In this document: piece by piece, positions 27,463 through 64,000 of the stretch
Layout: each line of letters begins with the position of its first letter
Numbering within the stretch: position 1 is the stretch's first letter
NCBI GenBank assembly: GCA_021513695.1
Contig: CP084166.1
Span: 2,464,001-2,528,000 of the forward strand
Reading direction: 5' to 3'
DNA: 64,000 nt
Origin: Candidatus Heimdallarchaeum aukensis
GTDB taxonomy: Archaea; Asgardarchaeota; Heimdallarchaeia; Heimdallarchaeales; Heimdallarchaeaceae
Made by a program: the position numbers and the translations under genes
Notes under the pieces: generated by a model
What the model saw: the letters and a program-made list of their open reading frames with translations, nothing else
What the model was told of the DNA's origin: nothing
The model's database searches: none

Positions 27463-28110
27463 TTAATTTGCAATTGTAAAGTATTTAGCAGCGAATCTGC
27501 CTGCATTTGTTAATTTAATAATATTATTTCTTCCTTCTTTTTTATTTTCAATGAGATTCTCTTTTTCAAGTTTATTTATATAATAACTTACAAGTTGAGG
27601 TCTTATATTCAGAACATCACTGATCTCTGAATTAGCTGAACAAATTTTTCCTCCTCTTTCAAGTATGAGTGTAAGTATTTTTTTGGCATTATCTTTTATG
27701 TCATCTAATTGGACTTTTGGAATGGGAAGCTTAATTATTCTATCACTTAATGGATCATTATTTTTTGGTTCTTTAATATAATAAATCTCTGAACCAGAAA
27801 AAAATCCTGCTATTACACCAGCTGATGACATGATTTTTGTACCTCCTGTAATGTTTATGTGGATTCTATTACCAATGTTCTTCTTGATAATACTAAGAAT
27901 TTTAACTACAACATCTTCTAAATCAAATTTATCAACTTCAACTAATGTACAATTAATAAATAGTTTTTCAGTTAGTGCTCTAATTGAATTAGCCTCTGTT
28001 TTTGATCCTTCATTGTAAAGAAGAAATATATCATCAATTTGATATGCATTTATTCCTTCAATTATTGGTTTTGGTGTCAATCCAACTGTCATAATATGTA
28101 CATTTCGCAT
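27463..28110 (-). CDS. Csa3-like transcriptional regulator: CARF (CRISPR-associated Rossmann fold) sensor domain plus C-terminal winged HTH
   Basis: N-terminal MTVGLTPKPIIEGI...HINITGGTKIMSSAGVIAG carries the CARF D/N-x-T-G-G-T-K signature. The C-terminal wHTH is SEISDVLNIRPQLVSYYINKLEKENLIE. It is divergent from the viperin gene. Confidence 0.7.
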   Translation of the reverse strand: MRNVHIMTVGLTPKPIIEGINAYQIDDIFLLYNEGSKTEANSIRALTEKLFINCTLVEVDKFDLEDVVVKILSIIKKNIGNRIHINITGGTKIMSSAGVIAGFFSGSEIYYIKEPKNNDPLSDRIIKLPIPKVQLDDIKDNAKKILTLILERGGKICSANSEISDVLNIRPQLVSYYINKLEKENLIENKKEGRNNIIKLTNAGRFAAKYFTIAN

Positions 28111-31888: not shown

Positions 31889-31892
31889 AATT

Positions 31893-34522: not shown

Positions 34523-34568
34523 AACTGCAACTCAATAGATTTATAAATTGTAAAATGGAGCTAAAAAA

Positions 34569-35108
34569 GTGTCATACGATTTACTATATATTTCATTAAT
34601 GGGCTCATCAGAAAAAGCTGTAGCAAATTCAATATATGCTTCTTTAAAGAATTTAGTTAAAACTGATAAGAAAAATTGGGTTCTGGTGTTTGCAAAATCT
34701 AAATCAACACCAATAAATGGAGAAAGAATTGTTGAAATATTAGATGAGTATAAAAACACTTATACTAAAGCTAAATGGTACAACGCTCCTGTTGATTTTG
34801 ATGAGTTTGAAATTGAAGAATCCAACCTTCTTAAATCAATGGAACAGATAATAAATTATGTGGAAGAAACAGAAAAGAACTACTCTGACATCTTTATAGA
34901 TATAACACCAGGTAGAAAAGTAATGTCTGTTGCAGCCACTCTAGCCGCAATAAATCTCTGTAAATCATCAGAGTTCAATGATATCAAAATAATATACTAT
35001 TTGTTGAAAAATGTTGATGAACATAAAGATAAAGACGCACCTGAACTATATCCTGATGAGTACAAAGTGTCGAGTTGGTCTGTTAAAGATATAAGTAAAA
35101 GAATTTAG
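34569..35108 (+). CDS. standalone CARF-domain protein (179 aa)
   Basis: Core IFIDITPGRKVMSVAATLAAI is parallel to the Csa3-like HINITGGTKIMSSAGVIAG (the D/N-I-T-x-G-x-K signature). The N-terminal beta strand is LLYISLMGSS. There is no fused effector. Confidence 0.5.
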   Translation: MSYDLLYISLMGSSEKAVANSIYASLKNLVKTDKKNWVLVFAKSKSTPINGERIVEILDEYKNTYTKAKWYNAPVDFDEFEIEESNLLKSMEQIINYVEETEKNYSDIFIDITPGRKVMSVAATLAAINLCKSSEFNDIKIIYYLLKNVDEHKDKDAPELYPDEYKVSSWSVKDISKRI

Positions 35109-35118
35109 AGGAAAAAGA

Positions 35119-36219
35119 ATGTCTGAAAAGCCAGTAATTTTGGAGTTTAGTGAGTTTTTTGAGAGTTATTTGTCAGAAAAACCTTTCATTATTCGAGGTT
35201 GGGATGAAGATGAGAATCAAGAATTTAGAATTGAATATAATGAAGGTATTACAACATTTGATAAAAATTTAAAACCCTTAGATATAAAGAATTATCTCTT
35301 TAATATTGGTATCTTCCCTTCTGATGAAAAATGGTGGAGAGAAAAAGCATTTAAAAAATTGGAAAAACGATATAATGAAGCAATTGAAGAAGAAGAGGTT
35401 CCTGCTCTGGGTTTAGATACAAATATAATAATAAATGGCGTTTTTATCAACAGGTTAAGAGGATTATTAAAAAGGAAACTTAAATGGGAAAATCCTCTCC
35501 TTCTACTGTCTCTTGCTTCATCTCACGAGCTTCACTATGGAGCAGAATCAAAATATAATGACTCGTTTTATAACAAATCAAAATTGGACAATATATGGGA
35601 ATTTATTTTATCACTAGATTCTCAAACACAGGAACTAGCTAAGACTGTTTTTGGCACCTATAAACCTATAGAAAACAAAAACATTTTGAGTTCTTTACAT
35701 TGTAAAAGAGGAAGAATAGGGCTTATAGGTTCATATAACTATTATAAACATAAGAAACTACCAAATACTCTCATCATAAAATCGATTCATCCTTATAATG
35801 TTGCAAAGTTTGATTCAGATGGGCATAAATATAAAGGAATTGATGCAATTTACGACACTTTAATTGCTTATGAGTTCACTCAGTTTATGACCTTTACAAA
35901 TACAAAAGTAACGATTTTAACAATGGATAATTCTTTAGCAAGTTTATTACAAAATGCATCAGTGGATGTAGTTTATATACCACCTCCAAGTAAATTTCAA
36001 TTACCAAAAGAAATAATTATCCCTCAAAGAAATTGTTCTATCCTTCTGAGAGAACTATTAGTAAGATCTCCTTTTATCGTTATTGAGGATGAAAATAAAA
36101 AAATAGTATTATCAATGATTTGGATAGGACAAACAGATGAAGAAAAAGCAAAAGGAGTAATTCATGGAGTAGTGAAAGAAAAAAATAAAACTAGATATTT
36201 ATTAATAAAGAGCCAATAA
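35119..36219 (+). CDS. hypothetical protein with a possible PIN-like nuclease core
   Basis: ALGLDTNIIING is a PIN first-strand h-h-D-T-N-h-h motif. SSHELHY gives the downstream acidic residue and ILTMDNSLASLL the last (T-x-D). The spacing is longer than in a canonical PIN domain. Confidence 0.35.
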   Translation: MSEKPVILEFSEFFESYLSEKPFIIRGWDEDENQEFRIEYNEGITTFDKNLKPLDIKNYLFNIGIFPSDEKWWREKAFKKLEKRYNEAIEEEEVPALGLDTNIIINGVFINRLRGLLKRKLKWENPLLLLSLASSHELHYGAESKYNDSFYNKSKLDNIWEFILSLDSQTQELAKTVFGTYKPIENKNILSSLHCKRGRIGLIGSYNYYKHKKLPNTLIIKSIHPYNVAKFDSDGHKYKGIDAIYDTLIAYEFTQFMTFTNTKVTILTMDNSLASLLQNASVDVVYIPPPSKFQLPKEIIIPQRNCSILLRELLVRSPFIVIEDENKKIVLSMIWIGQTDEEKAKGVIHGVVKEKNKTRYLLIKSQ

Positions 36220-46610: not shown

Positions 46611-47372
46611 GGTAGTGTCTAGTTTTTATACCACCTCCTAGGCAAAAAGGAACTAAGGGGAGGATGTCCCAAGCTCTGATGAGGACGAACGAAATTATAA
46701 TAGAGCATAAAGAGTGTAAGGAAACCAGAAAGATGGGTAGAGCCATAGACGGCACGGATAGAACATGTGCAGTGGAGAATAGAATGAAACCAACGATAGC
46801 TCTTAAGGGTAGCATTAAAACGTTCAATATAGGAGCGTAAACCACCTTTGATAACGGAGATTTTAATACCGAGACGACGTAATACAGGATACCATACCCC
46901 TGCATCTGTAACGACAATACGAGGCTTAGAACCCCAACATTTGAACCAATAACGAAAAGTTAGTAAACATTCAAGATTACTCCGTCCTTTAGTAATACTA
47001 AAACCCAGTAAAGTCTTGTTGTAAGGATCTAACGCGAACCACATGTACATTGAGCCTTGAGAGGTCTTAATCTCTGTTTCATCAACTACTATAATCTCTG
47101 GTATTCCCCCTCTCTCTGCTACAACTCTATGTAAACTTTCCCTAAAGAGCCTGAATTTCTTTACCCAATACCATAGTGCCTGGTGTGTTAAACCATTCTT
47201 CCATGCTACTGTCCTCAAACCATTCTTTGAACCGATATATTCATAAATAGCTCTTATGATTATTTTCTTGGGGATTCTGCTCCCTTTAAAAAGGGAGTAT
47301 ATTCTTAGTTTGTTCATATTTTCACATTAGAATCCCCAATAATATTTTTGTCGGGAGAAACTAGACACCACC
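46611..47372 (-). mobile_element. IS6-family insertion sequence (762 bp), copy 2, inverted relative to copy 1, with its own 10-bp flanking direct repeat
   Basis: Ends are GGTAGTGTCTAGTTTTTATACCACC at 46611 and CTAGACACCACC ending at 47372. It is flanked on both sides by ATAGAAAACC. Confidence 0.85.
46619..47317 (-). CDS. IS6-family DDE transposase (232 aa), about 90% identical to the 38403..39101 product
   Basis: Same DDE blocks as the 38403..39101 product (VVDETEI, VVTDAGVWYP, YIERFNATLK). Confidence 0.85.
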   Translation of the reverse strand: MNKLRIYSLFKGSRIPKKIIIRAIYEYIGSKNGLRTVAWKNGLTHQALWYWVKKFRLFRESLHRVVAERGGIPEIIVVDETEIKTSQGSMYMWFALDPYNKTLLGFSITKGRSNLECLLTFRYWFKCWGSKPRIVVTDAGVWYPVLRRLGIKISVIKGGLRSYIERFNATLKSYRWFHSILHCTCSIRAVYGSTHLSGFLTLFMLYYNFVRPHQSLGHPPLSSFLPRRWYKN

Positions 47373-48317: not shown

Positions 48318-49919
48318 TTATTTCTCAAGTTCTTCTTTTATAGATGGAGTTACCCCCCCATGTTTCATTCTACGTTTCTTAATATTAACTAAAAGTGTAA
48401 AAGGAACAGATAATCCTGTAACCATAGCTTCACCAGTAGCTAGCCCTTTAATTGCTTCGAAATCTTCTTTTGTCATATGTTCTGCAATGTTTTGTACATA
48501 ATTTTGGTCTTTTGGATTCATCATTCTTAGTATAAAATGGGTGTTACATTGGCTTAAAATGTCTGCATCAACTTTAGAAGGTCTTTGTGATACAATACAC
48601 AATCCCATACCAAATTTTCTTCCTTCAGAAGCAACTCTTGCAATTATCTGTTTAGAAGCAGAAGGGCTTGTTCCTGGAGGAATGAAATTATGTGCTTCTT
48701 CAATAATTGTTAAAAATGGCTTTATTTTTGATTCATAACTTGTTTTCCTCAAATCAAAGAGTTTTCTTAGAATTAATCCTACTAAAGCTTGTTGATCAAA
48801 AGCTTCAATTCCTCCTAAGTCTAATATTGATATTTGCCCTTTCTTTACAAATTCTGAAACATCAGTTCCTTTTCCAAAAGTAAAATATGGTCTTTTCAAT
48901 AGTGCTCTCATTTTATTTTCAAGTGCTCTTCTTGTTCCTTTGTGTTCTATTCTTTCTATTGACTTTTCTATTAATTCCTCAATGCTGGTTGGAGGATTTC
49001 CATCAAGTGCTTCCATATGTATTTCATCCCAACCTCGATCTAATGATGCACTCTGAGCCTCTGAAATACCATAGTACTGTGAAAGTAAAGTCTTGATTTG
49101 CCATGTCTCTAACTCTGCTGGATGAAACTTAACACTAATTGTTACTCTTTTTCTTCCATGAACATCTTCAAACTTCTTTTCAAGTAAATAATTAAATTCT
49201 CCAGGAACAAATGTTAGTACTGACTTTGAGATTTCACGTGCTTCTCTTGAATCTTCATTAGGAATAAGTGTTGAAGAATATTCGCTATGAGGATCAATAA
49301 GAATGATGGGTAGTTTGAGATTATCTATTAAATATAATTCTTCGAGAATAACACCAACAGTATAACTTTTTCCTGCTCCTGTCATTGCTAAAACTGAAAA
49401 ATGATGTGTTACAAGTTTTTCATAATCTATATATGCTGGAACATTATGATTATCTCTCAAATTACCAATAATAATTGTTCTATCCTTAATGAAAAAAGAA
49501 GAAACAAATTCATCATCGGCCATATAAATAATTGTACCAGGATTAAGAGGGATTCGAGGTCTGACAAAGGCATTTCCTATTTTTCTTCCAATTATTAAAA
49601 CTGAAAATCCCATCATTCCAGCAATTTCAGAAGCTAATCCTAAATGTTCAATAGTCATAGAACTTGCCTCTAAGTCTTTTGTTCTAAGTTTTGGCATCAT
49701 ATTTTCATCTAATAGTAATCTGTTTTTTGTCCAAACAGATATAACTCTCCCTAGTAAAAATTCTTGTTTTTTATTTTCATCTAGATATTGTATTTTTACT
49801 AGTCTACCAATACCAATACTTGGCGAGTCTTTCAGAGCAATTGCTTCTACCAAGTATGGTGTTGTTTTTCCATAAACTATTCCAACAGGTATGTTTTTTT
49901 TCTCTCTATTTTGTTCCAT
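48318..49919 (-). CDS. HerA-like FtsK/HerA-superfamily ATPase (DUF87 type)
   Basis: Walker A HFSVLAMTGAGKSYTVGVILEEL. LPIILIDPHSEYSS matches the hDPHGEY HerA motif. Walker B FLTIIEEAHNFIP. Confidence 0.8.
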   Translation of the reverse strand: MEQNREKKNIPVGIVYGKTTPYLVEAIALKDSPSIGIGRLVKIQYLDENKKQEFLLGRVISVWTKNRLLLDENMMPKLRTKDLEASSMTIEHLGLASEIAGMMGFSVLIIGRKIGNAFVRPRIPLNPGTIIYMADDEFVSSFFIKDRTIIIGNLRDNHNVPAYIDYEKLVTHHFSVLAMTGAGKSYTVGVILEELYLIDNLKLPIILIDPHSEYSSTLIPNEDSREAREISKSVLTFVPGEFNYLLEKKFEDVHGRKRVTISVKFHPAELETWQIKTLLSQYYGISEAQSASLDRGWDEIHMEALDGNPPTSIEELIEKSIERIEHKGTRRALENKMRALLKRPYFTFGKGTDVSEFVKKGQISILDLGGIEAFDQQALVGLILRKLFDLRKTSYESKIKPFLTIIEEAHNFIPPGTSPSASKQIIARVASEGRKFGMGLCIVSQRPSKVDADILSQCNTHFILRMMNPKDQNYVQNIAEHMTKEDFEAIKGLATGEAMVTGLSVPFTLLVNIKKRRMKHGGVTPSIKEELEK

Positions 49920-49928
49920 TTTCCTTCC

Positions 49929-51053
49929 TCAATGTAGTAATTTTCTCATTTTTGAATTAATCAAATCTCTGGCAATATCTGGTGCAATATCTCGTATCTC
50001 ATAAATTAGTTGGGTAAAGACTTTGGATGAAAATGATTTTGTTACTCTTGTAAGTTCGTCTACAAAAACTAAAGGATAAGGATATCCAACAACAGGTGAA
50101 ATCCGACATAAGTCATTAAATAATTCAAATAGTGAGTCCAATTTGGATAAATCCCATTTTGGAAATTCTAGATATAGTGCATGAGATGAATTAGGATACA
50201 AATAATAGGTACTACAAACACCTTCTCTTTTTAAGATTGAAATTGGGATTTCACCATGGGTGATACCAGCGACTGAAACATCTAAAGGTTCAAAATAAGC
50301 TGGTTTATCAGGCGAATATTTTCGTATTATATGTTGTAAAGCTATTCTTTCTCTCCAAGATTCATTTTCAATTAAATTTCGAAGAATTTCTAACTTTTCT
50401 TTATTAATATTTAATTTATCCATTACTTCCTTATCACACTTTAAAGCTCTTAGATATTTAGCTCTTCTCGCATCTTTTGATACTGCAATTACACTCACTT
50501 TACTCTTTTTTAAAGCTAAATTAAAAAAATCATTAGCATTTTTTTGATACTTTAGGAAAGCATCTGACAATTCTCTTATGTTAGTAACATTTACAGAAGT
50601 ATCAGGAAATGTGATAGCTCCATCAAGTAAAACAAGAGTTGGAATATCATCATCTATTTCATTAATTGCTTTTTTTGCAACATAATATTCTAAAGACTTC
50701 ATGAAAGTGGATGAAACTATTGAAGCTATATCTGAAGCTGGAGTATCAAAAAGTTGAATATCATTAAAATCAGTAATTTTTGCCTTTCCAAGTGTAATCA
50801 TAAAGGCTCGAGCAGAAGCAACAGCAAATCCCACTCCTTCTAAAGATGTATGATCCATCCCCCCATCAACGGCTATAACTCTCCAATTTTCATCTGAAAA
50901 TGATTTATATTTTGGAATATTTATGATAAGATCTTTTAAAATTTTGAAGTTATTGGCCTGTCTTCTAACTTTTGCAACAAGTTTTGGTACTTCTATTCTT
51001 CTATATCTATCAATTTCTTTCATAATAAGATTGAAATTATCCATTATCTTCAC
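49929..51053 (-). CDS. NurA-like nuclease domain protein
   Basis: WRVIAVDGGMDHTS matches the NurA first motif h-A-h-D-G-S/G. TLVLLDGAITFPD, and VIAVSKDARRAKY matches the NurA GhSKDS motif. Its stop is 10 nt before the HerA start. Confidence 0.55.
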   Translation of the reverse strand: MKIMDNFNLIMKEIDRYRRIEVPKLVAKVRRQANNFKILKDLIINIPKYKSFSDENWRVIAVDGGMDHTSLEGVGFAVASARAFMITLGKAKITDFNDIQLFDTPASDIASIVSSTFMKSLEYYVAKKAINEIDDDIPTLVLLDGAITFPDTSVNVTNIRELSDAFLKYQKNANDFFNLALKKSKVSVIAVSKDARRAKYLRALKCDKEVMDKLNINKEKLEILRNLIENESWRERIALQHIIRKYSPDKPAYFEPLDVSVAGITHGEIPISILKREGVCSTYYLYPNSSHALYLEFPKWDLSKLDSLFELFNDLCRISPVVGYPYPLVFVDELTRVTKSFSSKVFTQLIYEIRDIAPDIARDLINSKMRKLLH

Positions 51054-51783
51054 ATTCTTTTAGCTTGTTATCTAATTCTGGCCATTTCAGCCTTAGTTGA
51101 TGTAATCTGTCATTAAAATCTGTAGCACATCCAATTTTTTCGTCTTTAATCTCTAAAATGCCTTTTTCAATAAAAATTTCCATCCATTCTGATATTTCAT
51201 CAATCTCAGCTAATCTGTAAAAATCGCTTAGGGATATTGATTCTCCGAAACTCATCAAAAAGGTTAATGAACGTTGAATTCCATCCCATACTCTTTTAGA
51301 GAATTTTGGAAATGCAGCTTCAGATACTGTGATATTTTTGAATATCTCTTTAAATATGTTTTTTATCAGTTCTGTTTCAAGTTTTCTGTGATACTCTGTA
51401 AAGTATGGCAAACAATAGATAAAGTTGTCTCGAATGATAGCAATAATGTGTTTTTGGAATTTAATTGTTTTGTCTTTAGCTTCTATTCCAACGTTTCCAA
51501 CTTTCAAGATTTCTCTCTGATTTTCAAATTTGATTGAATCTAAAGTAACCTCACAACTTTTTATCGTTTTACAAAAATGTTCAATATCTATTTTAGAAAG
51601 AGCGATTATTATTCCTATGCGGTTACTAGTTATTTCTTTTTTATAGTCTTCAATTAATGAGTAAGTAATTAAGATACAATTTGATTGTTTAATATCATCT
51701 GTTCTTGAAAATTCAGTGTCTTCTAAAATAAATTTTAGAGGATTATATATTTGAGGAGGAATGAACATCTTCATACTTAACAC
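51037..51783 (-). CDS. hypothetical protein (248 aa), operonic between the large NTPase and the NurA-like gene
   Basis: Overlaps the NurA-like start by 17 nt and abuts the NTPase stop. Confidence 0.45.
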   Translation of the reverse strand: MLSMKMFIPPQIYNPLKFILEDTEFSRTDDIKQSNCILITYSLIEDYKKEITSNRIGIIIALSKIDIEHFCKTIKSCEVTLDSIKFENQREILKVGNVGIEAKDKTIKFQKHIIAIIRDNFIYCLPYFTEYHRKLETELIKNIFKEIFKNITVSEAAFPKFSKRVWDGIQRSLTFLMSFGESISLSDFYRLAEIDEISEWMEIFIEKGILEIKDEKIGCATDFNDRLHQLRLKWPELDNKLKECEDNG

Positions 51784-54700
51784 CTATGTAGAAATTGTTT
51801 TAATAATTAGTTTTCTATTAATTAGATCTTCTATACAATTATCTACTTTATTTTTACCAAACTTTTCGTACAATTTTTCTAACTCTATTGCTCTCTTTGG
51901 TCCCTCTTTTCCTATCTCAAAGGCTATATCTTTATATTTAGTGAAATGTTCTTCTAAAAATTTATCTGTTACTTGTTTAAGATTGTACAAATCGTCAATA
52001 ACATTAAAAGATATTTCACGTTTTGAATCAACTTTATTAAGTAAACTAGGGATTTCATTAATACTTTTTACATCTTGATTTGATAGGATTAGATCTATAT
52101 TTCGTTCCTTTATCCAATTAAAAAAATTTGAAATTTGATTTAGAATTTTTTGTACATTGCGAAGCAGTATAGTTTGAATATCCTTATAAAAAGTTTCAAT
52201 TTCAGCACAAATTCGTGCAAACCAATCTAAGTATTTGTTAGCAAAAAACGGATCCTCTGGTAGTTCTGCTTTTAAGACATCATTTTCTAATTCTCTAAAC
52301 TCTCTCTCACCAATTTTATCTATGATTGATGAAATTTCAGTACTATTCTCAAAAACATAATCCCATTTTTTAATATCAACCAATTTTAGATTTTTTAAAG
52401 TGCTTAAGTATTTGTTAATAATTTCTGTTTGTTTTTCTAGTTTGGAATACAATGAAGATATTTGACTTTTAGCTTCAATGTGCTTGTTAAGTTCCTTCTT
52501 TATATTCTCAATTTTTACAATAGCTTTGTTTATTTCATTAATTTTCTTTATTGAATTTAATACACTAATGATTTTTTGAACAATATTATTAATTTTCGGA
52601 TCTGATTTTTTACTATGTTTATTACATTCTGCACTTATCTGTTTTAACAAAATTCTTAAGCTTTCTAGCTCACTTGTCACTTTTGAATAATCTTCTTCAT
52701 ATGCTTCAACTACTTCTGAAAAATCCCTCAATTTTTCATGTAATTTGCTTCTTTCATTGTAAATTTCAACTAATAATTCTCCTGTAATGTCAATAAAGTT
52801 TTTAGGTACTATTTCTTCAATATCTTTAGCATTTTTCTCAATTTCAGAAAGTTCATTTTCTAAATTCTTCAACTCTTGTAAAGTTTCAATTTCTAAATTG
52901 ATTGTGTGAGTATTTTCAGAAAAATCGACTCTAATAGTTTCTAACTCTGTAAACTTCTCAACTAAATTTAAATATTGTTTGGTTACCTCGTTAAGGTAAG
53001 TTCTATCCAATTTAGGATTGTAAAAATCAAATTTAAATTTCTTTTTTGCCTTTGGTGCTTGATCTATTAGAATACCTTTTACTGTTAGGAGTCTGAGGAT
53101 CTCTATTTCTTCTAAAATTGAACATGAAAGAGCATATCGTCTTCTTAATCTTATTCTTGCCAATTCAGGATCAATAGAATGAGCAAAAACAGAAAACAGT
53201 TCTATTATATCACGTTCTATTAAACTTAATTTTTGTACTTTATTGAACTTGAAAAGGCTACCAAAGCGTTCAAGTTTAGTTTTTAATTCGTTTATTTTTT
53301 GGTTGTTGGGTTCTTCTGAAACAATTTCTTCCCATAATTCATAATAAGTATCTAGTAGATCGTTAAAATCTCTTTTTTGGAAAATTCTATTGTCAAGAGG
53401 TATTCTATCCATTTTGTCAAATTCAGTTCTTATTTCCTTTTGAGTGTTGGTAAGCCAAGTAATGAAATTGTTTTTTATATCATCATGATTTTTCTCTTGA
53501 TGTGTTTCTTTTGGATATAAAATGTGAATTAGATCTTTTTTAGGAATTCCATACACTTTAATTAAAGGACTGTCTCTAGGTTTTAAATCCACTATTCCAG
53601 TTAATTCTTGTGATAGTTTTTCATGTTTGATTATTTCGTCTGTTTCTTCAGGCACCAAAAATGTAATTGCTTCAAAAAGTTCTGAACTTTTTACACATAA
53701 CTTTAGGTAGGTTTTAAGAATATCTTTTATATCCTTCTCTATTGATGGCTTAGCAAGCATGATTGCATTTTTTGGAGAGTCAATTGCACATACCAAATCG
53801 TTAATATTCTTATCTTTAGTTCCTAAAACGGAAATATAATGCATTTTTAGTATTTCTTTTAGATTTTTTGAGAATTTAACTGATATTTTTCTAGAAGATT
53901 CATTATCAAATTGCTGTAATGCTTTTCTCTCACCACTTATTTCTATACCTCTTATCTGTTTTTCTTTAATTTCATTTTTCCATCTTTGTTCAGAAATAAG
54001 TATATATGATTTTGCTTTGTTTTCAAACAATTCTCTTAATTCTTCATTTAACGTTTTCAGATTTTTTTTCTTAACTGCAATATAAGTGTTATATTCGCTA
54101 ACTGGAACTGTAGTAGGATCGTAATTATTCTTTACTAAATCATTATCAATATATGTTGCATACTTTTTAATAAGTCTGATATTTCTGTATTGACTGTCTT
54201 TTTCGCTGTATTCGATGTCTTTAACTATTTCTTCGTAATTTTCTATATTATCTTCATAATTAATAATTAATAAATCATCAACAAGACCTGAATCGATTAA
54301 CCGGTTTTTAAAGAATTCTACCAAATTTTGATCGATGTAATTTTTAAGTTCAGCATCAGAAATTGCAGAGTGGTCAAAATAAATTCGAAAAAGTAATTTG
54401 TAGATTGTTTCTTCATTAATGTTTATTTCTTTTGCAAACTTTCTTGCTACCTCAATTAACGAGGAATTAATCTTTCTTAACGCATTTTCAAAATTCTCAT
54501 TATTTAATCCTAAGATTTCAGGTTTTTTTATTATCTCTTCAAAATGTTCTAAGGTGAATTGAATTATTATTTCTTCTTTTCTTTCTAAGGTTTTTTTTGC
54601 TAAATACACCACTAGTCTATCCATCAATTTTATTAACATTCTTGTATTAACATAGGTATATTCATGTACTAAGGCAGAAAGCTTAGCTAAAGCTAAAGCA

Positions 54701-55458
54701 GTTCCTTCACTAAATGGATAATAAGGGTTTTTTAAATTAATTAAATTCCTTAAATCTTGATTTGCGTAAAAGTAAATGTAGCGACGAACTAATCCAGCCA
54801 TCTTCCAATCTTCAGGCTCTGGAATTATTATTTTGAATCCAATTAATCTATTATCACTTATATCCGGGTGGTAACTTAAGACATAATTCCAAGATGGAAC
54901 ACCAAAACCTAAAACTAGCATAATATTTTTGAAATCACTAAACCTATCATTTCTTTCTAAAAATCTCCTAAAATCTTTAAAGAATCGATCCGCATCGTTT
55001 CTTGATATCTGATTATTTGAAATCATTCTAGGAATATCATCTATTTCATCGATAAAAATAATAACTCGTTTTGAGGTATTTTCATCTTTTAAATTTCTAG
55101 ATAATTGTTTTTTTAAAAAAGAGTATAAATTTAGTGTGTCTCTACTAAATTGAGTGAAAATTGATATTATACCTATACTTTTAGTATATCTAGCAAGATA
55201 TTTCATAAGTTCAGATTTTCCTGAACCATATTCACCAATTACTGCTAAAGCAATATTGTCCCTATAATTAGTTGATTCTTCTAGTTTTCCGATAGCTCGT
55301 ATTAAAGCATTTCTTACCCCTACTGGAGGTGGAACATCTTCGTCCAATCCTTTAGTAACCCCCATTGGATTAAAAGGATTACTTGTAAAACCAACCTTTT
55401 TGAATAAATTCATTTCGTTACTCATATTTAAAATCCTCCTTAATTTCAGTAATCCCAT
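51784..55458 (-). CDS. large (1224 aa) P-loop NTPase: N-terminal AAA_16/STAND-like NTPase domain followed by about 900 aa of alpha-helical, coiled-coil-rich sequence
   Basis: Walker A IALAVIGEYGSGKSELMKYL and Walker B RVIIFIDEIDDI 60 aa later. The C-terminal half is rich in heptad-like K/E/L/I runs, for example LENELSEIEKNAKDIEEI...LESLRILLKQISAECNK. Confidence 0.75.
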   Translation of the reverse strand: MGLLKLRRILNMSNEMNLFKKVGFTSNPFNPMGVTKGLDEDVPPPVGVRNALIRAIGKLEESTNYRDNIALAVIGEYGSGKSELMKYLARYTKSIGIISIFTQFSRDTLNLYSFLKKQLSRNLKDENTSKRVIIFIDEIDDIPRMISNNQISRNDADRFFKDFRRFLERNDRFSDFKNIMLVLGFGVPSWNYVLSYHPDISDNRLIGFKIIIPEPEDWKMAGLVRRYIYFYANQDLRNLINLKNPYYPFSEGTALALAKLSALVHEYTYVNTRMLIKLMDRLVVYLAKKTLERKEEIIIQFTLEHFEEIIKKPEILGLNNENFENALRKINSSLIEVARKFAKEININEETIYKLLFRIYFDHSAISDAELKNYIDQNLVEFFKNRLIDSGLVDDLLIINYEDNIENYEEIVKDIEYSEKDSQYRNIRLIKKYATYIDNDLVKNNYDPTTVPVSEYNTYIAVKKKNLKTLNEELRELFENKAKSYILISEQRWKNEIKEKQIRGIEISGERKALQQFDNESSRKISVKFSKNLKEILKMHYISVLGTKDKNINDLVCAIDSPKNAIMLAKPSIEKDIKDILKTYLKLCVKSSELFEAITFLVPEETDEIIKHEKLSQELTGIVDLKPRDSPLIKVYGIPKKDLIHILYPKETHQEKNHDDIKNNFITWLTNTQKEIRTEFDKMDRIPLDNRIFQKRDFNDLLDTYYELWEEIVSEEPNNQKINELKTKLERFGSLFKFNKVQKLSLIERDIIELFSVFAHSIDPELARIRLRRRYALSCSILEEIEILRLLTVKGILIDQAPKAKKKFKFDFYNPKLDRTYLNEVTKQYLNLVEKFTELETIRVDFSENTHTINLEIETLQELKNLENELSEIEKNAKDIEEIVPKNFIDITGELLVEIYNERSKLHEKLRDFSEVVEAYEEDYSKVTSELESLRILLKQISAECNKHSKKSDPKINNIVQKIISVLNSIKKINEINKAIVKIENIKKELNKHIEAKSQISSLYSKLEKQTEIINKYLSTLKNLKLVDIKKWDYVFENSTEISSIIDKIGEREFRELENDVLKAELPEDPFFANKYLDWFARICAEIETFYKDIQTILLRNVQKILNQISNFFNWIKERNIDLILSNQDVKSINEIPSLLNKVDSKREISFNVIDDLYNLKQVTDKFLEEHFTKYKDIAFEIGKEGPKRAIELEKLYEKFGKNKVDNCIEDLINRKLIIKTIST

Positions 55459-56176
55459 AAGTGCCAGGTATGATGTTCTCGACTCCTACACCAAATTTAA
55501 ATTGAATCTGAAGATCATCTTTCAGTGTTTTTAATAGATTAAAAGCAGTTTCTAACGTCATTACTTTATTTGATTCTAGCACCTTCTGGGTAAAGCACTC
55601 TATGATGTCATATGTTCTCAATTGCTTTATTTTGGCTTCTTTTGAGATAATTCCTATACATTTTTTAAACAAACTAACATATGTTCTTGTTGTCATCTTG
55701 CTTTCATAATAAATTCCTTCTGATTCCTTTTTTAGTAATGAGCTCATTATTGCTAATGCTGTTAAAGTGTTAAATGTAGGTTCAGGAAGATTCCAACCAT
55801 AACTGAACTGTTTCTCCTTGATTAAATTAAAAAGGGATTTTTTACTTTCAAAAAATTTATCACTACTTTCATCTAAAAAATCAGTTAAAACTCTATATTG
55901 AGGTATCTGACTCATTAAAATGTTATGAAGCAAATCTGAAAACTTATCTTTTTCATTACGAAATTCAAACAATTTTTGACCATTTTGTGTGAATTTTAGA
56001 TATTTATTTTTCTCTTCTTCAATAATTCCAAGCTGTTTCATGAGTCTTCTAACATCATTACCTGATGTATCAAATTGTTTAAACTGTTCTACTGGAATTT
56101 TCCCTTTATATAGACCTATGGCTGTTAAACACCTCATAAATGAACCTTCAGTAACTTGAGGTAATGATTTAATCAT
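55418..56176 (-). CDS. hypothetical protein (252 aa), first gene of the five-gene operon
   Basis: Overlaps the NTPase start by 41 nt. Its start is 84 bp downstream of the IS insertion. Confidence 0.45.
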   Translation of the reverse strand: MIKSLPQVTEGSFMRCLTAIGLYKGKIPVEQFKQFDTSGNDVRRLMKQLGIIEEEKNKYLKFTQNGQKLFEFRNEKDKFSDLLHNILMSQIPQYRVLTDFLDESSDKFFESKKSLFNLIKEKQFSYGWNLPEPTFNTLTALAIMSSLLKKESEGIYYESKMTTRTYVSLFKKCIGIISKEAKIKQLRTYDIIECFTQKVLESNKVMTLETAFNLLKTLKDDLQIQFKFGVGVENIIPGTYGITEIKEDFKYE

Positions 56177-56259
56177 CGAGTGTTTATTTAATTTTTATTA
56201 TATTTATTTTATGGAAAAAGTATGTTTTTTTTAAAAAAATATTATCTCTTTTAAGAAAA

Positions 56260-57268
56260 AAGCATGTCCAAAAATTCTTTTTCACCAACTATACAGTCCG
56301 AAGGAGTAAACGGTAGTTATAACAGAGGAGAGAACTGTACAAGGTAGAAAGGATGGTAGAGGGTAAGCGATCAAGTATCGGGGGAAGAGAGAGTTTGAGG
56401 AGACCAAAGACATGTTCAATACTACTACGATACTCGGGGTGGTGATTATGACGATAGAGACCAGGGTAGAGACGATGAGCTTGAACTATTGGTCCAAGAG
56501 GAGGAGGAGAGGGATAACGAGCATTACTTTTTGGGGGAATAACAGGAAAAAAGGAATGTTGGCTAAGAAGACCGACGATATTTTCTGTCCAGTAGGCACA
56601 GTCTCCATAGAATCGCAAGAAAGGTCTCAAGAGTGCAGAAGGAAGTTTCTGCCATAACAAACCGAAGACTTTACTATCGTGAGTGTTACTAGCAGAATGA
56701 GTAAGAGAGACTATAGCTCGAGAGGGTAAACCAACTATAAGGTGTATCTTCCAGAAAAGTTTAGTTTGGAGGTTTTCTTTAGTCCTCCTCTTGCCCACTT
56801 GAGAAAACGCCAAACAGAAGCTTGACGGATTTTAAACCCTGAACTATCCACCGCCATAGCTTTCAACCCTTTTTTCCTCACTATTTTCCTACCTAAATCT
56901 ATTATCCACCGCTCCAGCAACTCACTTTCTGTCGCTCTCCACACTGCATGAAAAGTAGATTTGGAAGGAATCTTCTTCATCCACCCCTCTTCTATCAAAA
57001 AAGCGCATAAAGACAACTTTTCCTCTAACTTCCTCCAAGCAATTCCTTCTATTCTAGCAATGATCGCTAAAGCCAGTATCACCCATCTTTCTGCTATTCT
57101 CTTTCTCCCTCTCTTGCTTTCTCTCGGTTCCTCTTTCACCAGTTTCTTAAGGAAAGGTTCATTAATGATTATGAATTCTCTTGCTTTGTGGGGGTCTATG
57201 ATCTGAAAGAAATTCATACTTCCGACATAAACCCCCACATTAATAAAAATTAATTTTTGGACATGCTT
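56260..57268 (-). mobile_element. IS element of about 1009 bp (IS5/IS4 superfamily), copy 2, with orfA/orfB arranged for a -1 frameshift and flanked by an 8-bp direct repeat TAAGAAAA
   Basis: Same terminal inverted repeats as the copy at 19707..20714 (AAGCATGTCCAAAAATT). TAAGAAAA sits immediately on both sides, at 56252-56259 and 57269-57276. Confidence 0.85.
56289..57238 (-). CDS. IS5/IS4-superfamily DDE transposase encoded as orfA (56735..57238) and orfB (56289..56813) with a 79-nt overlap in the -1 frame
   Basis: orfA has MAVDSSGFKIR (first D). orfB has FYGDCAYWTENIVG (second D) and SSIEHVFGLLK (E). The overlap contains cta aag aaa acc. Confidence 0.75.
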
Positions 57269-57282
57269 TAAGAAAATTTAAA

Positions 57283-59122: not shown

Positions 59123-61267
59123 ATGGTTCAACCGAAGAAGCTTTATAGTTTTTTAGATTCAGAATTAAAAACTTATCAGTTTCCAGAATTTCAAAGACCA
59201 TATGTATGGGGCCAAAATGAGATATATGATTTAATTGATACAGTAGTAAGGGGATATTCTGTTGGATTGATACTACTTTGGGAAGGAGATAGTAATGCTC
59301 TGAATTATTCTCTTCGAGATTGGGTATCTCCTCCAAGCAATAGTGATCGTTTAAGACTAAAGTACATTCTAGATGGACAACAAAGAATAAAAACACTTTC
59401 AAGAACCTTCGGAATTGATTTTTTAGTCAATAATGGTTTTATGTCAGAAGTAAAAACTGATTCAATTCCAAGAGCACTCTCCAAATACCCATATTTTATT
59501 TTTCCATCTCGATCAAATTTCTTAAATGTTACAAAAAACAAAAAAAATCGCTGGGTTAGTTTCGATATTTTCTTAGATTTAGCTAAAGTTGACTTAAGTA
59601 AAGAAAAATGGTATGAACGCATATCTCCTGATTGCTGGGTTTCTTTATTGGATATTATGAGGATGAATTGGAAGAAGGAAGAAATAGCAGAATTTAGCAT
59701 ATTAACTGAGAAAAAAGGTCCACTTAATAATTTAGAATTTTTTATTGTTGAGTATAAAAATGGTAAAATTGAAAGAGATAACCCAAACAACAAGTGGTAC
59801 AAAAAACAAGAGGATGGTGTTCAAGATACAAACTTAGTAAAACCAATTAGATTCATTTACATTAACTCATTAGAAAATATAGAAGATATAATTAAATATT
59901 TTAGATTATATTACCAGTTAAACGGAAGTATTCAAATTTCTCAAGATAAAAATTTTCTACATTTAGAACTTAGGCGAGAATTGATTTCACTACTAAAAAT
60001 AAAGCCAACAGATATAGATTTATTATTTCAAGAAACAGAATCAGCAGAACTTACACAGTTAACGCATTACTTTTCTAGGTTAAATAGAGCTGGTGTGTTA
60101 CTGGATGTAGTTGATTTGCTTATAGCAAAAATTTATGGTGAGAGAAATGAGCCGTTTCCTTTGCGCAATATCTTACAGAACACCTTTAGCGATGATACTC
60201 TTCGAAATTTTTTTAATCTAAAAGATGATGATGACCCAAGTACAAAATTTAAACTATTATTACAAGTAGTTTCTCTTTACTTTTATAACAAACTATCTGA
60301 TGATGCAATATTAAAAATAACGCAGCAAAATTTGTTAGATTTTGAGTTTGAGAAATTCTCGATGACATCTATTCCAATAAATAAGAAAGTATTAATACGT
60401 GAATCATGGAGAAAAACAATAGAATTTTTGAGAGAGAAACTTGCTATAAATTCTATTTCTAAATTAAGGTATGACCGGTTGTTTGTTATATTAATGGCAC
60501 TTAATTATCATGTTTATAAAGAAGAAATACTAAACAAAAGCTATAGAGACTTATTTGAGAATGAGTTTGATGAGATTCTCAAAGTTTGGATACTAAGGGA
60601 ATCTATATCGTTCAATCTAGCAACTGGAAGTAATAAACCTCCTGAAAGATATAAAACATTTATAAATAAGAGTATACCTTCTATAATACGATGCATTGAA
60701 AATGAAGAAGAAATAAGTAGAAAAGAAATATTAGATGAAATATTCGTTCCCACTTTGTCAGATGAAAACTTATCAGATAAGGAGTTTGGAAAAGCTCTAA
60801 TGAGTATTTTGTTGAAAGAAAATGGGATTTACGATTTCTACGATAAAACATTGTCAAAAAAGATCACAACTTGTTCTCAAGTTATTGAAGATACAATAGA
60901 GCTACATCATATTTTTCCAAAAAATATGGTTAATGATGCCAATTTAAAGAGGGTATTTGATATAGGATTAAACTTGACACCTTTAAAGAAAAAGACTAAT
61001 AGTGATAAACTTGGTAATAAACACCCATTTAAATATATTCAAGAAATGATGGGGGAGATTCAAGATGAAGCTATATTCAACGAAATAATGAACTCTCATT
61101 GGTTGCCAGAATTAGAATGGTGGCGTGATATTATGCAAAAATACGATTATCCAGATAATGAAGATGCAATAAAAAATGTTGAGAAAATAAAAGAGCAATT
61201 TGATTTATTTATTGAAAAAAGAAAAGAAATTGTTTTAGATAAAATCAAACCCCTCTTATACTTATAG
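59123..61267 (+). CDS. DUF262 (ParB-like) plus DUF1524 (His-Me finger) protein; GmrSD-family type IV restriction endonuclease-like
   Basis: N-terminal YQFPEFQRPYVWGQNEIYDLIDTVVRGYSVGLILLW is the DUF262 (I/V)PxFQRxYxW signature. C-terminal IELHHIFPKNM...NLTPLKKKTN is DUF1524/HNH-like. Confidence 0.7.
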   Translation: MVQPKKLYSFLDSELKTYQFPEFQRPYVWGQNEIYDLIDTVVRGYSVGLILLWEGDSNALNYSLRDWVSPPSNSDRLRLKYILDGQQRIKTLSRTFGIDFLVNNGFMSEVKTDSIPRALSKYPYFIFPSRSNFLNVTKNKKNRWVSFDIFLDLAKVDLSKEKWYERISPDCWVSLLDIMRMNWKKEEIAEFSILTEKKGPLNNLEFFIVEYKNGKIERDNPNNKWYKKQEDGVQDTNLVKPIRFIYINSLENIEDIIKYFRLYYQLNGSIQISQDKNFLHLELRRELISLLKIKPTDIDLLFQETESAELTQLTHYFSRLNRAGVLLDVVDLLIAKIYGERNEPFPLRNILQNTFSDDTLRNFFNLKDDDDPSTKFKLLLQVVSLYFYNKLSDDAILKITQQNLLDFEFEKFSMTSIPINKKVLIRESWRKTIEFLREKLAINSISKLRYDRLFVILMALNYHVYKEEILNKSYRDLFENEFDEILKVWILRESISFNLATGSNKPPERYKTFINKSIPSIIRCIENEEEISRKEILDEIFVPTLSDENLSDKEFGKALMSILLKENGIYDFYDKTLSKKITTCSQVIEDTIELHHIFPKNMVNDANLKRVFDIGLNLTPLKKKTNSDKLGNKHPFKYIQEMMGEIQDEAIFNEIMNSHWLPELEWWRDIMQKYDYPDNEDAIKNVEKIKEQFDLFIEKRKEIVLDKIKPLLYL

Positions 61268-61699: not shown

Positions 61700-62275
61700 C
61701 TATGCAAAAACGCTGTTAGGCTGTTTTTTATGTTGTTCGTATACACTTGGTAGAGTCTTTAATAGCCATTGATATAATTTCAGGAATTCTTTTGCCTCTG
61801 TTTCAATATATTCTATTATTTCATCATATTTTTTATCTTTATATAAATCAAGTATATCCTCTCCTGTTTTCTTTTTTTTGGTAAAAGTATCTAATCTAGC
61901 ACCTTTAAATGATCCTTTATTTAGTATAAATAAGGTAGAACTAATATCTACGTGGGGATGAGTTAATAATTTCTCTAATTCAATATTTAGACCATATTTT
62001 TTAGCTCTTTTAGACAATACGATAAAATCATATTTTAAATTGGAACCAACAGGTGTAAAATTCCATTTATCTTTTATGTTTAATTTTCTAAGAAATTTTT
62101 TTATTATTTCTTCTTCAGAATTTTCCCAACTTTTAAGAATAGTTAAAGGCTCTCCACTTAATTTTTTTCCTGTTTGCTGCAATATTTTTTGGTATTGTAT
62201 AGTGATAATTTCATAATTGTAAGAATCTTCTTCTTTTTTACCATATGTTTCAATATCAAAATAATATGTTGTCAT
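61700..62275 (-). CDS. DnaQ-like (DEDD, RNase-H-fold) 3'-5' exonuclease domain protein
   Basis: YYFDIETYG is Exo I D-x-E. GSNLKYDFIVL is Exo II. YKDKKYDEIIEY is an Exo III Y-x3-D candidate. Confidence 0.5.
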   Translation of the reverse strand: MTTYYFDIETYGKKEEDSYNYEIITIQYQKILQQTGKKLSGEPLTILKSWENSEEEIIKKFLRKLNIKDKWNFTPVGSNLKYDFIVLSKRAKKYGLNIELEKLLTHPHVDISSTLFILNKGSFKGARLDTFTKKKKTGEDILDLYKDKKYDEIIEYIETEAKEFLKLYQWLLKTLPSVYEQHKKQPNSVFA

Positions 62276-62499: not shown

Positions 62500-64000
62500 T
62501 CATTCTTCACAAGGCCCACCTACTATTTTTGAGTATGGGCAAGTTCTACATCTACTATACTCATCATCCTTATTTGGGTTTTTCACAAAGCCTTGTTCCA
62601 CATCAATTTTTATTCTGTTTTTAATAGCATCTTCAACTTGAGATTTGAAAGATTCAAGGTTATGATTTATTTTTACAACTTTGAATTGGGGATGTACAAA
62701 AACAATCAATGTTCCAATATCTTTGATATTTGGATAATTTTGTTTTAAAAGCCAAGCATATGTTGTTAGTTGATTCTCATACATTGTGTAGAGATCGCTG
62801 CTTTCATTTGGTGGATTTCCAGTTTTATAGTCAATGATTATCCATTTTTCTTCTTCAATTTTAAATAAAAGATCTATAGTTCCTGTTATTATAACGGGTT
62901 TATAATCATCGTAGGAAAATTTTGCTTGTAACTGATATTCTGTGAAAAAATCGGATGTTCTCTTATTGAAAAGATTTGAAATTGTTTTGTCTTTTAGATA
63001 AGAATTTATTATTTGTATAAGATGTTGTTTCGCATTATCAACTTGAATTTTACTAAGAATATTTAAAATAAGTTCAGAATCTATTTTTTCTTCTGAATTT
63101 ATTGCTTTATGAAATGATTCCATGAACAAATGGACTATATCTCCCCATTCTGCTGCTGAATTGATCCCCTTTGGAGGTGTTGTTCCTGGGGGTAAATGTT
63201 CCTCTCCAAATTTGCCAGATAAATAATAATTATCCACTTTATTTAAAACTGCATAGGCATATCTTCGGGGACAGAAAAGTAGATTGTAAAGTTCTTTTGC
63301 TGCAATAGATATGGGTACAAATTGTATATTTGCTAGTGTATTTAGTTTTTTAATTTTACTTCTTTTAACTTCTTTCTCATAATCTTTTTCTCTAAAAGAT
63401 AGAGGTTGATCTTCTTTAGGTGATGGCTTAATGATCTCTATTTTAATCTCTTCAACAATTTCTTTTTCTTCTAAACTATCGATAACTAGATTCTGTTCAT
63501 TCCAATTTAATGTTACATAAAAACAATCTCCTTCTGGGTTAAAATCTCTATTATTTAAAACTCCAAGTTTGTTTTGAATAGTATACATCCACCTAGTATA
63601 TTTATTTCCCTTAGGTTCTATAAGACCAAGATGAAAAATAAGATGATCTCTTGCTCTTGTAGTCGCAACATAAAAAAGGCGCCAAAATTCAGCAATATCT
63701 TTTTTGATAAATTGATTTAAAGGGTTGTTAAACTTAAAAACACCATTGTCTTCTCTTTTGTTACTAACCCAAAAGATTCCAGACGATAGATTACCAGGTA
63801 TTAATCTCTCTCCTGGGCCATTAATATCTTCTACTGTTTCTACATTAATATCAATTGGTTTAATAGCCACACCAATCTCTCTATCTAAAAATATTCTTTC
63901 CCTATAAGGGTCTCTTAATACATCTTTCACAAGCAGATCTGGAATAATTACTATTGGGAATTCAAGTCCTTTGCTTCTATGTATTGTCATTATTTTTACG
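62500..64000 (-). CDS. C-terminal part of a UvrD/PcrA-like SF1 helicase fused to a Cas4/AddB-type PD-(D/E)xK nuclease domain; the 5' end lies beyond the window
   Basis: - VKIMTIHRSKGLEFPIVII is helicase motif V/VI region, and LFYVATTRARDHLIF is motif VI.
- The nuclease domain has Cys in CPRRYAY plus a C-terminal CRTCPYSKIVGGPCEE cluster.
- The frame is still open at position 64000. Confidence 0.7.
   Translation of the reverse strand, partial: VKIMTIHRSKGLEFPIVIIPDLLVKDVLRDPYRERIFLDREIGVAIKPIDINVETVEDINGPGERLIPGNLSSGIFWVSNKREDNGVFKFNNPLNQFIKKDIAEFWRLFYVATTRARDHLIFHLGLIEPKGNKYTRWMYTIQNKLGVLNNRDFNPEGDCFYVTLNWNEQNLVIDSLEEKEIVEEIKIEIIKPSPKEDQPLSFREKDYEKEVKRSKIKKLNTLANIQFVPISIAAKELYNLLFCPRRYAYAVLNKVDNYYLSGKFGEEHLPPGTTPPKGINSAAEWGDIVHLFMESFHKAINSEEKIDSELILNILSKIQVDNAKQHLIQIINSYLKDKTISNLFNKRTSDFFTEYQLQAKFSYDDYKPVIITGTIDLLFKIEEEKWIIIDYKTGNPPNESSDLYTMYENQLTTYAWLLKQNYPNIKDIGTLIVFVHPQFKVVKINHNLESFKSQVEDAIKNRIKIDVEQGFVKNPNKDDEYSRCRTCPYSKIVGGPCEE

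Follow-up and report, generated by a model that had tools for sequence, protein, structure and literature searches.

In a 64,000-nucleotide (nt) stretch of the genome of Candidatus Heimdallarchaeum aukensis (contig CP084166.1, positions 2,464,001 to 2,528,000, assembly GCA_021513695.1; hereafter the window), an original prediction made from the sequence alone had proposed an operon of five minus-strand genes, here called A, B, C, nurA and herA. All five open reading frames (ORFs) were found exactly where they had been placed (Table 1), and the same five genes occur in the same order in relatives, but a sixth gene, encoding a TGT-family enzyme, had been overlooked. The operon proved real and conserved, and the view of it as a non-canonical, defence-type HerA-NurA operon is supported, although this view missed the TGT gene and somewhat mischaracterised the large ATPase encoded by gene B. 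With the TGT gene as sixth member, the locus reads as a system linked to 7-deazaguanine and no longer as an orphan HerA-NurA effector operon.

Table 1. Position of the genes and of the insertion sequence (IS) at the locus, numbered from the first nucleotide of the window
Feature	Length	Position	Strand	Basis and remarks
Gene A	252 aa	55418-56176	minus	ORF listing
Gene B	1224-aa ORF	51784-55458	minus	ORF listing; probable start Met12 at 55425, giving 1213 aa
Gene C	248 aa	51037-51783	minus	ORF listing; probable start a few codons further in
nurA, NurA-family nuclease	374 aa	49929-51053	minus	Pfam NurA PF09376
herA, HerA-family hexameric DNA translocase	533 aa	48318-49919	minus	DUF87, HerA_C, PADLOC HerA
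TGT-family base-exchange enzyme, arcTGT catalytic domain only	410 aa	57283-58515	minus	Pfam, NCBIfam, PADLOC
IS between the TGT gene and gene A	~1 kb	56259-57269		inverted repeats, frameshifted DDE transposase
HNH-domain protein, possible accessory gene, membership uncertain	397 aa	44801-45994	plus	Pfam HNH 2.6e-9

The tight junctions described for the five genes were right for the 41-nt overlap of A and B, the contact of B and C (0 gap) and the 17-nt overlap of C and nurA, but the last gap measures 9 nt and not 10. Since every homologue of gene B starts at its Met12, the 41-nt overlap is probably an artefact of taking the longest ORF, and the real overlap would be of 8 nt. The comparison of synteny that had been recommended showed the same gene order in diverged relatives (24-76% identity to the window proteins, depending on the protein), so that the order at the locus is not due to chance. 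The G+C content of the window is about 30% throughout.

The identities proposed for NurA and HerA were borne out by profile searches. NurA matched Pfam PF09376 over the whole profile (E=1.5e-11, positions 2-254 of 254), and HerA matched DUF87 (6e-36), HerA_C (25 bits, cut-off 22) and the PADLOC HerA model (4e-56), with HAS-barrel remaining below its cut-off (21.3 bits, cut-off 25.2). The motifs IAVDGG, VSKD, GAGKS, DPHSEY and IIEEAH, on which the prediction had relied, are all present and kept in relatives; so are the further acidic motifs KSLEY and LLDGA and the GYPYPL motif of NurA, as well as the Walker A, Walker B and SQRPS motifs of HerA. With these catalytic motifs and the Walker motifs of gene B intact, both effector and motor are predicted to be active. 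By analogy with the repair complex, the two proteins very likely form a HerA hexamer feeding a NurA dimer, and we propose NurA as the effector nuclease and HerA as the motor that supplies it with DNA. HerA-NurA of T. kodakarensis degrades both strands of double-stranded DNA and has been suggested to destroy foreign DNA (PMC12977600).

The top NCBIfam matches of HerA are models of double-strand-break repair HerA (2.9e-61 and 5.5e-50), ahead of the anti-phage HerA models, and nurA adjoins herA as it does in repair operons; both observations would suit a housekeeping resection machinery for double-strand breaks with lineage-specific accessory proteins. Such a machinery is, however, very improbable here, because the scores fall far under the cut-offs of the NCBIfam repair equivalogs (208 against 970 bits for HerA and 23 against 400 bits for NurA) and no Mre11 or Rad50 gene was found in the window locus or in any related locus, in agreement with the earlier view that this is not the canonical herA-mre11-rad50-nurA cluster. 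Moreover, relatives of gene B are extremely scarce (2 in 5.8 billion protein clusters and, in an exhaustive HMMER search, 22 matches among 1.84 billion representatives), and the unit lies in a defence island with IS elements and is likewise present as an island in the Thermococcus carrier described below.

The overlooked sixth gene matched the TGT family in Pfam (TGT, 3e-15), NCBIfam (arcTGT, 3e-20) and PADLOC (DpdA, 2.3e-8). Its best solved relative was the P. horikoshii ArcTGT (1iq8), which aligned over residues 40-323 only, and comparison with this structure revealed that the PUA and C-terminal tRNA-binding domains are absent. Seven out of seven family members keep both catalytic aspartates, which correspond to D95 and D249, as well as a CxCxx[C/H]...H zinc motif. 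Because the catalytic and zinc residues are kept and the tRNA-binding domains are missing, the protein looks like a nucleic-acid enzyme, and we propose that it is a DpdA-like 7-deazaguanine DNA transglycosylase derived from ArcTGT.

The IS that splits the TGT gene from gene A has terminal inverted repeats of 24 nt (56259-56282 and 57246-57269, 92% complementary), both ends being flanked by a direct repeat with a TTTCTT core, a target-site duplication. Its transposase is frameshifted (ORFs 56289-56813 and 56735-57238; Pfam DDE_Tnp_1 3.6e-8). With the IS taken out, the TGT stop codon lies about 100 nt upstream of gene A; at the IS-free related locus L001 the distance is 120 nt, with both genes on the same strand. 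The spacer was hit independently by two unrelated IS, one of the DDE_Tnp_1 type in the window and one of the rve type in L002 (2220-3131), the near-identical sister contig L001 being without an insertion there. This could reflect a hotspot, or selection to uncouple or silence the halves of the system.

The contigs of two gene B relatives carried the same five genes in the same order, each with an adjoining TGT-family gene, and further related loci were reached by following HerA relatives and then more distant HerA and TGT relatives. A TGT gene adjoins the unit in all four lineages beyond the window whose contig reaches both flanks, although its position varies: in the window, L001/L002 and L006 it precedes A, whereas L003/L007 and L008-L010 have it after HerA. 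Identity to the window copy fell in the same order for three proteins (57, 42, 34 and 27% for TGT; 76, 67, 55 and 43% for HerA; 60, 55, 36 and 30% for NurA). At L006, two TGT genes and a DUF6884 gene precede A-B-C-NurA-HerA. At L007 the contig end truncates a gene at the place of NurA, of which the last part is present, followed by HerA and TGT. The two TGT genes of L006 (98-3614) are diverged (29% mutual identity) and stand on either side of the DUF6884 gene; the window TGT is more similar to the distal copy (39%) than to the one next to gene A (34%). Loci L008-L010 have the order A-B-C-NurA-HerA-TGT, and then a PCNA-like gene, QueT and a QueC fragment of 92 aa. The PCNA-like protein (364 aa; L008 12630-13724, also in L009 and L010; PCNA_N 9e-6, Hus1 5e-4) directly follows TGT, and a sliding-clamp-like partner of a DNA base-exchange enzyme would be unusual. 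At L010 (1-1410, minus strand) we also found a second, weak NurA-like gene (312 aa) with an adjoining 486-aa gene, upstream of the unit and on the opposite strand, so that some genomes have two NurA-containing pairs side by side.

More diverged variants keep a core of TGT, NurA, HerA and a giant AAA+ ATPase. L011 consists of DUF5591, a weak TGT-like gene, a gene of the size of A and resembling it, a 1292-aa ATPase whose AAA+ domain is homologous to that of B (hhalign 97%), NurA and HerA. L013/L014 hold three HEAT-repeat genes, TGT, NurA, HerA, a 1400-aa ATPase and DUF6884; and in the cultured Thermococcus argininiproducens (L015, CP080572.1, about 1.395-1.416 Mb) the order is HerA, a 1561-aa AAA_16 protein, NurA, DUF5591, TGT and DUF6884. 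The distribution of the unit is patchy and very rare. DUF2400 proteins were seen near it in two lineages, directly downstream of HerA (L002 11186-11746) and past TGT, QueT and QueC (L008 14900-16156), which are 40% identical to each other, and a gene of the OGG-like glycosylase type (weak match) follows HerA at L012 (3231-4301). These neighbours may be additional base-recognition components.

The genes that the relatives add are DUF6884, DUF5591, QueT and QueC. DUF5591 is an ArcS/ArcTGT-associated domain. According to the Pfam curators, DUF6884 is a distant relative of YaaA (PF03883) with a common DNA-binding cleft (PMC11701544), and the DpdC proteins of the Dpd system are of the YaaA/DUF328 family (PMC12839542). 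In Acidobacteria (Pyrinomonadaceae; L016 1898-12312), a member of the same short-TGT clade was found in a TGT-DUF6884-QueC cassette without HerA or NurA; the cassette is therefore a module able to combine with different partners. It adjoins four caspase-like (Peptidase_C14) genes and two genes with a Y4kD_C domain, and may represent a different conflict system sharing the same 7-deazaguanine module. Together, the QueT gene and QueC fragment beside TGT in L008-L010, the cassette of L016 and the YaaA fold of DUF6884 support a 7-deazaguanine chemistry.

The presence of this TGT clade in L016/L017, where HerA and NurA are lacking, the IS that parts TGT from the operon in the window and L002, and the differing position and neighbours of TGT among the loci would all agree with a self-contained, capture-type HerA-NurA operon of five genes, as in the original prediction, with a separate TGT module, for DNA modification or anti-restriction, that merely tends to land in the same islands. 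Against this, TGT is adjacent in every locus with enough flank, over a range of HerA identity from 76% to 26% and through several rearrangements, its divergence tracks that of the other genes, and the IS-free L001 retains the close, same-strand arrangement with A. A chance co-location of one rare gene family in about nine independent lineages is also unlikely, and for these reasons we give independence of the TGT gene a low probability.

The three remaining proteins were characterised by profile searches and structure models. Neither A nor C matched any Pfam, NCBIfam or PADLOC family, even at E<=10 (for gene A this included DUF4007 and BrxA of Pfam), and neither gave a specific whole-protein fold match in the PDB libraries. 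The model of gene A (pLDDT 89) showed three winged-helix (wHTH) units, and its whole-chain Foldseek matches in the PDB were weak (FokI, E=3e-3; SspB/DUF4007 6LB9, E=0.17, TM 0.35); from this model, we propose that A is a DNA-recognition subunit. The model of gene C (pLDDT 79) showed an N-terminal flavodoxin-like/GATase1-ThuA-like alpha/beta domain and a C-terminal winged helix. The idea that C might be a BrxB-like or STAND NTPase was rejected, since its fold is different, no member of its family has a Walker A motif or P-loop, and the hhalign probability was 0.2%.

For gene B, the Walker A and Walker B pair had been described correctly as about 60 aa apart: GSGKS (K81) and FIDEID (D137-E138) are separated by about 57 aa and are kept in relatives. 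Its classification as AAA_16/STAND-like did not stand, as Pfam gave weak AAA, AAA_22 and BrxC_BrxD matches over the Walker region instead (BrxC_BrxD at E=0.003, under the gathering score), with no match to DUF6079 or DUF499, and a STAND character was not demonstrated; against PDB sequences, the profile of gene B gave solely generic AAA+ matches in the Walker region, for instance to ClpX. The heptad-like helical tail of roughly 900 residues also had to be given up. Residues 1-520 form a conserved globular region, and only about 180 residues look heptad-like: a crude heptad score exceeded the 99th percentile of shuffled sequences in short patches at about residues 835-1005, with isolated ones near 150, 320 and 1115, and the sole coiled-coil-type match was to PADLOC LmuB (residues 858-1024).

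An exact-sequence look-up of the 1224-aa ORF returned no match, probably because the annotated start is Met12. Pattern scans for gene B found no relative in the genome collection, and in metagenomes two short partial loci alone (L004 and L005). Several remote homologues (about 620-1140 aa) match BrxC_BrxD at the N-terminus (best 3.4e-8, next 2.4e-6), two of them over the gathering score, and in some of these and of the family member P0125 there are sub-threshold wHTH matches after the ATPase and at the C-terminus. Gene B encodes an AAA+ ATPase, weakly BrxC/BrxD-like; the ATPase part precedes a conserved globular region, behind which come a helical stretch that includes a short coiled coil and, at the C-terminus, a likely wHTH. 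The sensor or scaffold role suggested for this protein is accepted as plausible.

From the observed gene content, the families and folds of the parts, their intact catalytic motifs and the linkage to TGT, we propose that TGT, A, B, C, NurA and HerA constitute a six-gene, horizontally mobile archaeal defence system resembling restriction-modification, a proposal for which we see as much reason to believe as to doubt. The arcTGT-derived transglycosylase would swap guanine in host DNA for a 7-deazaguanine (preQ0 or a derivative), the base being supplied by the archaeosine pathway of the cell. A, with its triple winged helix, B, as a BrxC-like AAA+ ATPase acting as scaffold or loader, and C would form an ATP-driven, DNA-bound complex that reads the modification status or the target sites; alternatively, this complex might assist TGT in base insertion, much as DpdA is assisted by the ATPase DpdB. 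Where the DNA is foreign and unmarked, the complex would license HerA, whose hexamer would then feed the duplex to the NurA dimer for digestion of both strands.

A defence role is supported by the defence island and by the patchy, very rare distribution, and the architecture by its counterparts, namely the capture systems, with HerA/FtsK, an Orc/Cdc6-type AAA+ ATPase, a multi-wHTH protein and a nuclease, and the BREX-related capture (BRC) systems with TGT. Several points weigh against the proposal. We infer the antiviral function and the DNA modification, as well as the DNA substrate of TGT, the self/non-self logic and the formation of the complex. For A, B and C, the proposed roles are guesses based on their folds, and the alpha/beta domain of C has no recognisable active site. 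The third zinc cysteine of TGT is substituted in the window, L002, L003 and L007 lineages. No DUF6884/DpdC-like, QueC or QueT gene was found in the window locus, so that TGT alone would depend on preQ0 from the host. The IS elements that separate TGT from A in the window and, independently, in L002 could indicate separable parts or an operon undergoing silencing. Finally, the neighbourhoods are few, from about nine independent lineages, and were reached via HerA or TGT matches, so that the co-occurrence with TGT is not an unbiased statistic.

A further point against DNA modification, and one in favour of the main rival, is that TGT is nearer to the tRNA enzyme ArcTGT than to bacterial DpdA (72 against 29 bits, the NCBIfam cut-off for DpdA being 200 bits). 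According to this rival, TGT, with QueC-like partners where they are present, attaches or reads a 7-deazaguanine on a protein component or on tRNA and acts as a regulatory switch for A-B-C/HerA-NurA, in the manner of Cap9/Cap10, which act on the CD-NTase of type IV CBASS; in that defence system, protein deazaguanylation is a new use of enzymes of the TGT and QueC families (bioRxiv 10.1101/2025.04.06.647259). The QueC fragment adjoining TGT in L008-L010 would fit as well, but no full-length QueC-like gene was found in the window locus or in most loci. Moreover, the protein-modifying Cap10 has no zinc site (bioRxiv 10.1101/2025.04.06.647259), whereas the TGT family described here keeps its zinc motif together with both catalytic aspartates. 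The missing tRNA-binding domains of TGT argue against a tRNA substrate, and the recurrent DUF6884, with its YaaA/DpdC-like DNA-binding fold, and DUF5591, of ArcS type, point to nucleic-acid base chemistry. We consider modification of a protein or of tRNA unlikely.

The surroundings of the locus bear on both its defence role and its mobility. As had been claimed, the locus stands in a defence island beside an IS: its neighbours in the window are HEPN_Swt1/PDC-M34B, NERD, a ResIII helicase, HNH, GmrSD, an SF1 helicase with a PLD nuclease, CARF proteins, a prokaryotic viperin and several IS. The IS elements flanking the locus and its patchy distribution, the service of HerA/FtsK ATPases in viruses and conjugative elements, and the distantly related TGT (29% identity) encoded by the archaeal viruses STSV1/2 would be consistent with genes of a virus, plasmid or transposon-like island that serve the processing, packaging or partition of its own DNA, with HerA as pump, NurA as processing nuclease and TGT shielding the DNA of the element from host restriction. 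However, no capsid, integrase, replication-initiator or conjugation genes are conserved beside the unit in any locus, the flanks being wholly different, and the neighbours are typical defence genes (GmrSD, HEPN, NERD, HNH). Gene B had no match among 72,556 plasmids, and among 50,697 phage records only the STSV TGTs matched. Taken together, these points make a function for a mobile element clearly improbable, more so than a protein or tRNA target of TGT.

Some of the neighbours recur beside the proposed defence system in other loci. The HNH protein of the window is 33% identical (E=5e-49) to an HNH gene of L003 (4994-6211), which lies directly upstream of gene A on the same strand; no HNH gene was seen beside the other loci. 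The window gene may be an accessory gene displaced through IS activity, an rve-type IS being present at 46619-47317. A GmrSD-type modification-dependent restriction enzyme adjoins the unit in the window (59123-61267, plus strand) and in L008/L009 (L008 1-1799), which fits the setting of a defence island and possibly indicates cross-talk over modified DNA. Genes for a UvrD-type helicase and a PD-(D/E)XK nuclease were found near the TGT side in the window (62500-63990, minus strand), in L001/L002 (L001 770-3947) and in L013 (16610 to the end). The window UvrD/PDDEXK gene was rejected as an orthologue of the pair beside TGT in L001, as tblastn gave no similarity at 1e-5, and by sequence comparison this association with the TGT side recurs without orthology between the window and L001. 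The 191-aa gene at 61700-62275 (minus strand), beside the window UvrD gene, had a faint PolB-exonuclease-like match and was rejected as a possible DUF6884.

Farther away in the window, the radical-SAM gene at 28217, at first a candidate for QueE, proved to be a prokaryotic viperin (28217-29095, plus strand; NCBIfam viperin_w_prok 2.4e-85, 286 bits against a cut-off of 180). It heads a same-strand cluster with 29102-36219, which comprises an SF1 helicase (AAA_11/AAA_12, 928 aa), two unknown 366-aa genes, a PLD-nuclease protein and a Csx14/CARF-like gene. Directly upstream, on the opposite strand, is a Csa3-like CARF regulator (27463-28110).

The proposed system would have a wider bearing, as archaea, including the Asgard lineage closest to eukaryotes and a cultivable Thermococcus, may write 7-deazaguanine into their own chromosomal DNA by means of an ArcTGT-derived enzyme, with HerA-NurA as the restriction arm steered by a BrxC-like ATPase and a triple-winged-helix reader, a claim in which our doubt slightly outweighs our belief. 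If true, this would be a first for 7-deazaguanine restriction-modification in cellular archaea, and a direct example of immunity having taken over a motor-nuclease pair from DNA repair; NurA, hitherto treated as a repair nuclease, would join the dedicated immune effectors, and TGT would have been recruited into defence a second, independent time, from the archaeal ArcTGT line and not from bacterial DpdA. The proposal predicts 7-deazaguanine bases in archaeal genomic DNA; to our knowledge, genomic 7-deazaguanine has been reported only for bacteria and viruses. The prediction is sharp and directly testable, because one variant occurs in the cultured T. argininiproducens. The system would also offer a simpler archaeal relative for the computational ideas on BRC and capture systems, with a HerA6-NurA2 machine that has solved homologues and is biochemically tractable, and, for Asgard biology, it adds one more system to the viperin-bearing defence island in a closed Heimdallarchaeum genome.

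Among known systems, that the locus is neither Sir2-HerA nor DUF4297-HerA was confirmed, no Sir2 or DUF4297 domain being found in any of its genes. Like these and the capture systems, it couples a HerA-superfamily motor to an effector. Capture systems comprise HerA/FtsK, an Orc/Cdc6 AAA+ ATPase, a rapidly evolving multi-wHTH protein related to DndG, SspB and the FokI recognition domain, and a restriction endonuclease (REase) (PMC10853773), and they share with the locus a multi-wHTH protein and, putatively, an Orc/Cdc6-type ATPase. The effector here is NurA, however, and not an REase, Sir2 or DUF4297, linkage to TGT is not a feature of those systems, and no inserted inactive REase, as in capture systems, was detectable in gene B. 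The archaeal HerA-NurA resection complex, which acts with Mre11-Rad50, has the same two adjacent families with intact catalytic motifs, but here the pair is without Mre11/Rad50 and forms part of a mobile defence island together with TGT and genes A, B and C. BREX types 1-6, defined by PglZ and a PglX-type methyltransferase (or PT module) with BrxC, differ in that no PglZ, methyltransferase, BrxL, BrxA or BrxB match was found in the locus.

The bacterial Dpd system (dpdA-K) also places a TGT-family enzyme in a multi-gene defence island with ATPases and nucleases, and some relatives of the locus have a DUF6884 protein of YaaA fold, analogous to DpdC, and the preQ0 supply genes QueC and QueT. In contrast, no DpdB (ParB-like ATPase), DpdC (DUF328) or DpdD-K was detected in the window locus, the DUF6884 protein of those relatives is only distantly DpdC-like, and TGT is of archaeal ArcTGT derivation, at 29 bits against the 200 required for DpdA, with a restriction side made up of HerA-NurA and A-B-C.

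The closest likeness is to BRC, a computational prediction from 45 taxa with PglZ, DUF6079/BrxC, an active STAND NTPase, DUF4007, HerA/FtsK and, in a subset, GNAT and TGT (PMC12839542). The two follow the same general logic and have analogous parts, namely a HerA-superfamily translocase, a large ATPase with an N-terminal AAA+ domain (BrxC/ORC-Cdc6 in type, for gene B putatively so), a small DNA-binding protein with several (w)HTH units, another small protein and a nuclease-type effector, to which is added a stand-alone TGT that is proposed to place 7-deazaguanine on self DNA as a mark. Both are rare, are found in archaea and have been predicted computationally. The earlier statement that the locus matches no known system therefore stands in so far as it fits neither BRC, Dpd, BREX, Sir2-HerA, DUF4297-HerA nor the capture systems, but BRC does combine HerA, a BrxC-like ATPase, a multi-wHTH protein and TGT, with PglZ and without NurA. 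The BRC effector is PglZ with an inactive Swi2/Snf2 N-terminal domain, whereas no PglZ match was found in the window locus or in the listed Pfam hits of related loci, and NurA takes the nuclease role. The small BRC protein is an active STAND NTPase, a BrxB homologue with a Walker A motif, unlike gene C; the HerA of BRC is of the DndH-type HerA/FtsK, whereas the HerA here is of the archaeal repair type and paired with NurA; and the locus has no GNAT and no Pfam match to DUF4007 for A or to DUF6079 for B. NurA appears in neither of the comparative papers (PMC12839542, PMC10853773), and the openly searchable literature, with subscription journals outside it, held nothing linking NurA with TGT or 7-deazaguanine and no description of the system. 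The TGT-linked HerA-NurA unit thus belongs to neither BRC nor Dpd and would be an apparently undescribed antiviral system, presumably a 7-deazaguanine-linked, HerA-driven, BREX-like defence, notable for its occurrence in Asgard archaea and Thermococcus and for its recruitment of HerA-NurA.

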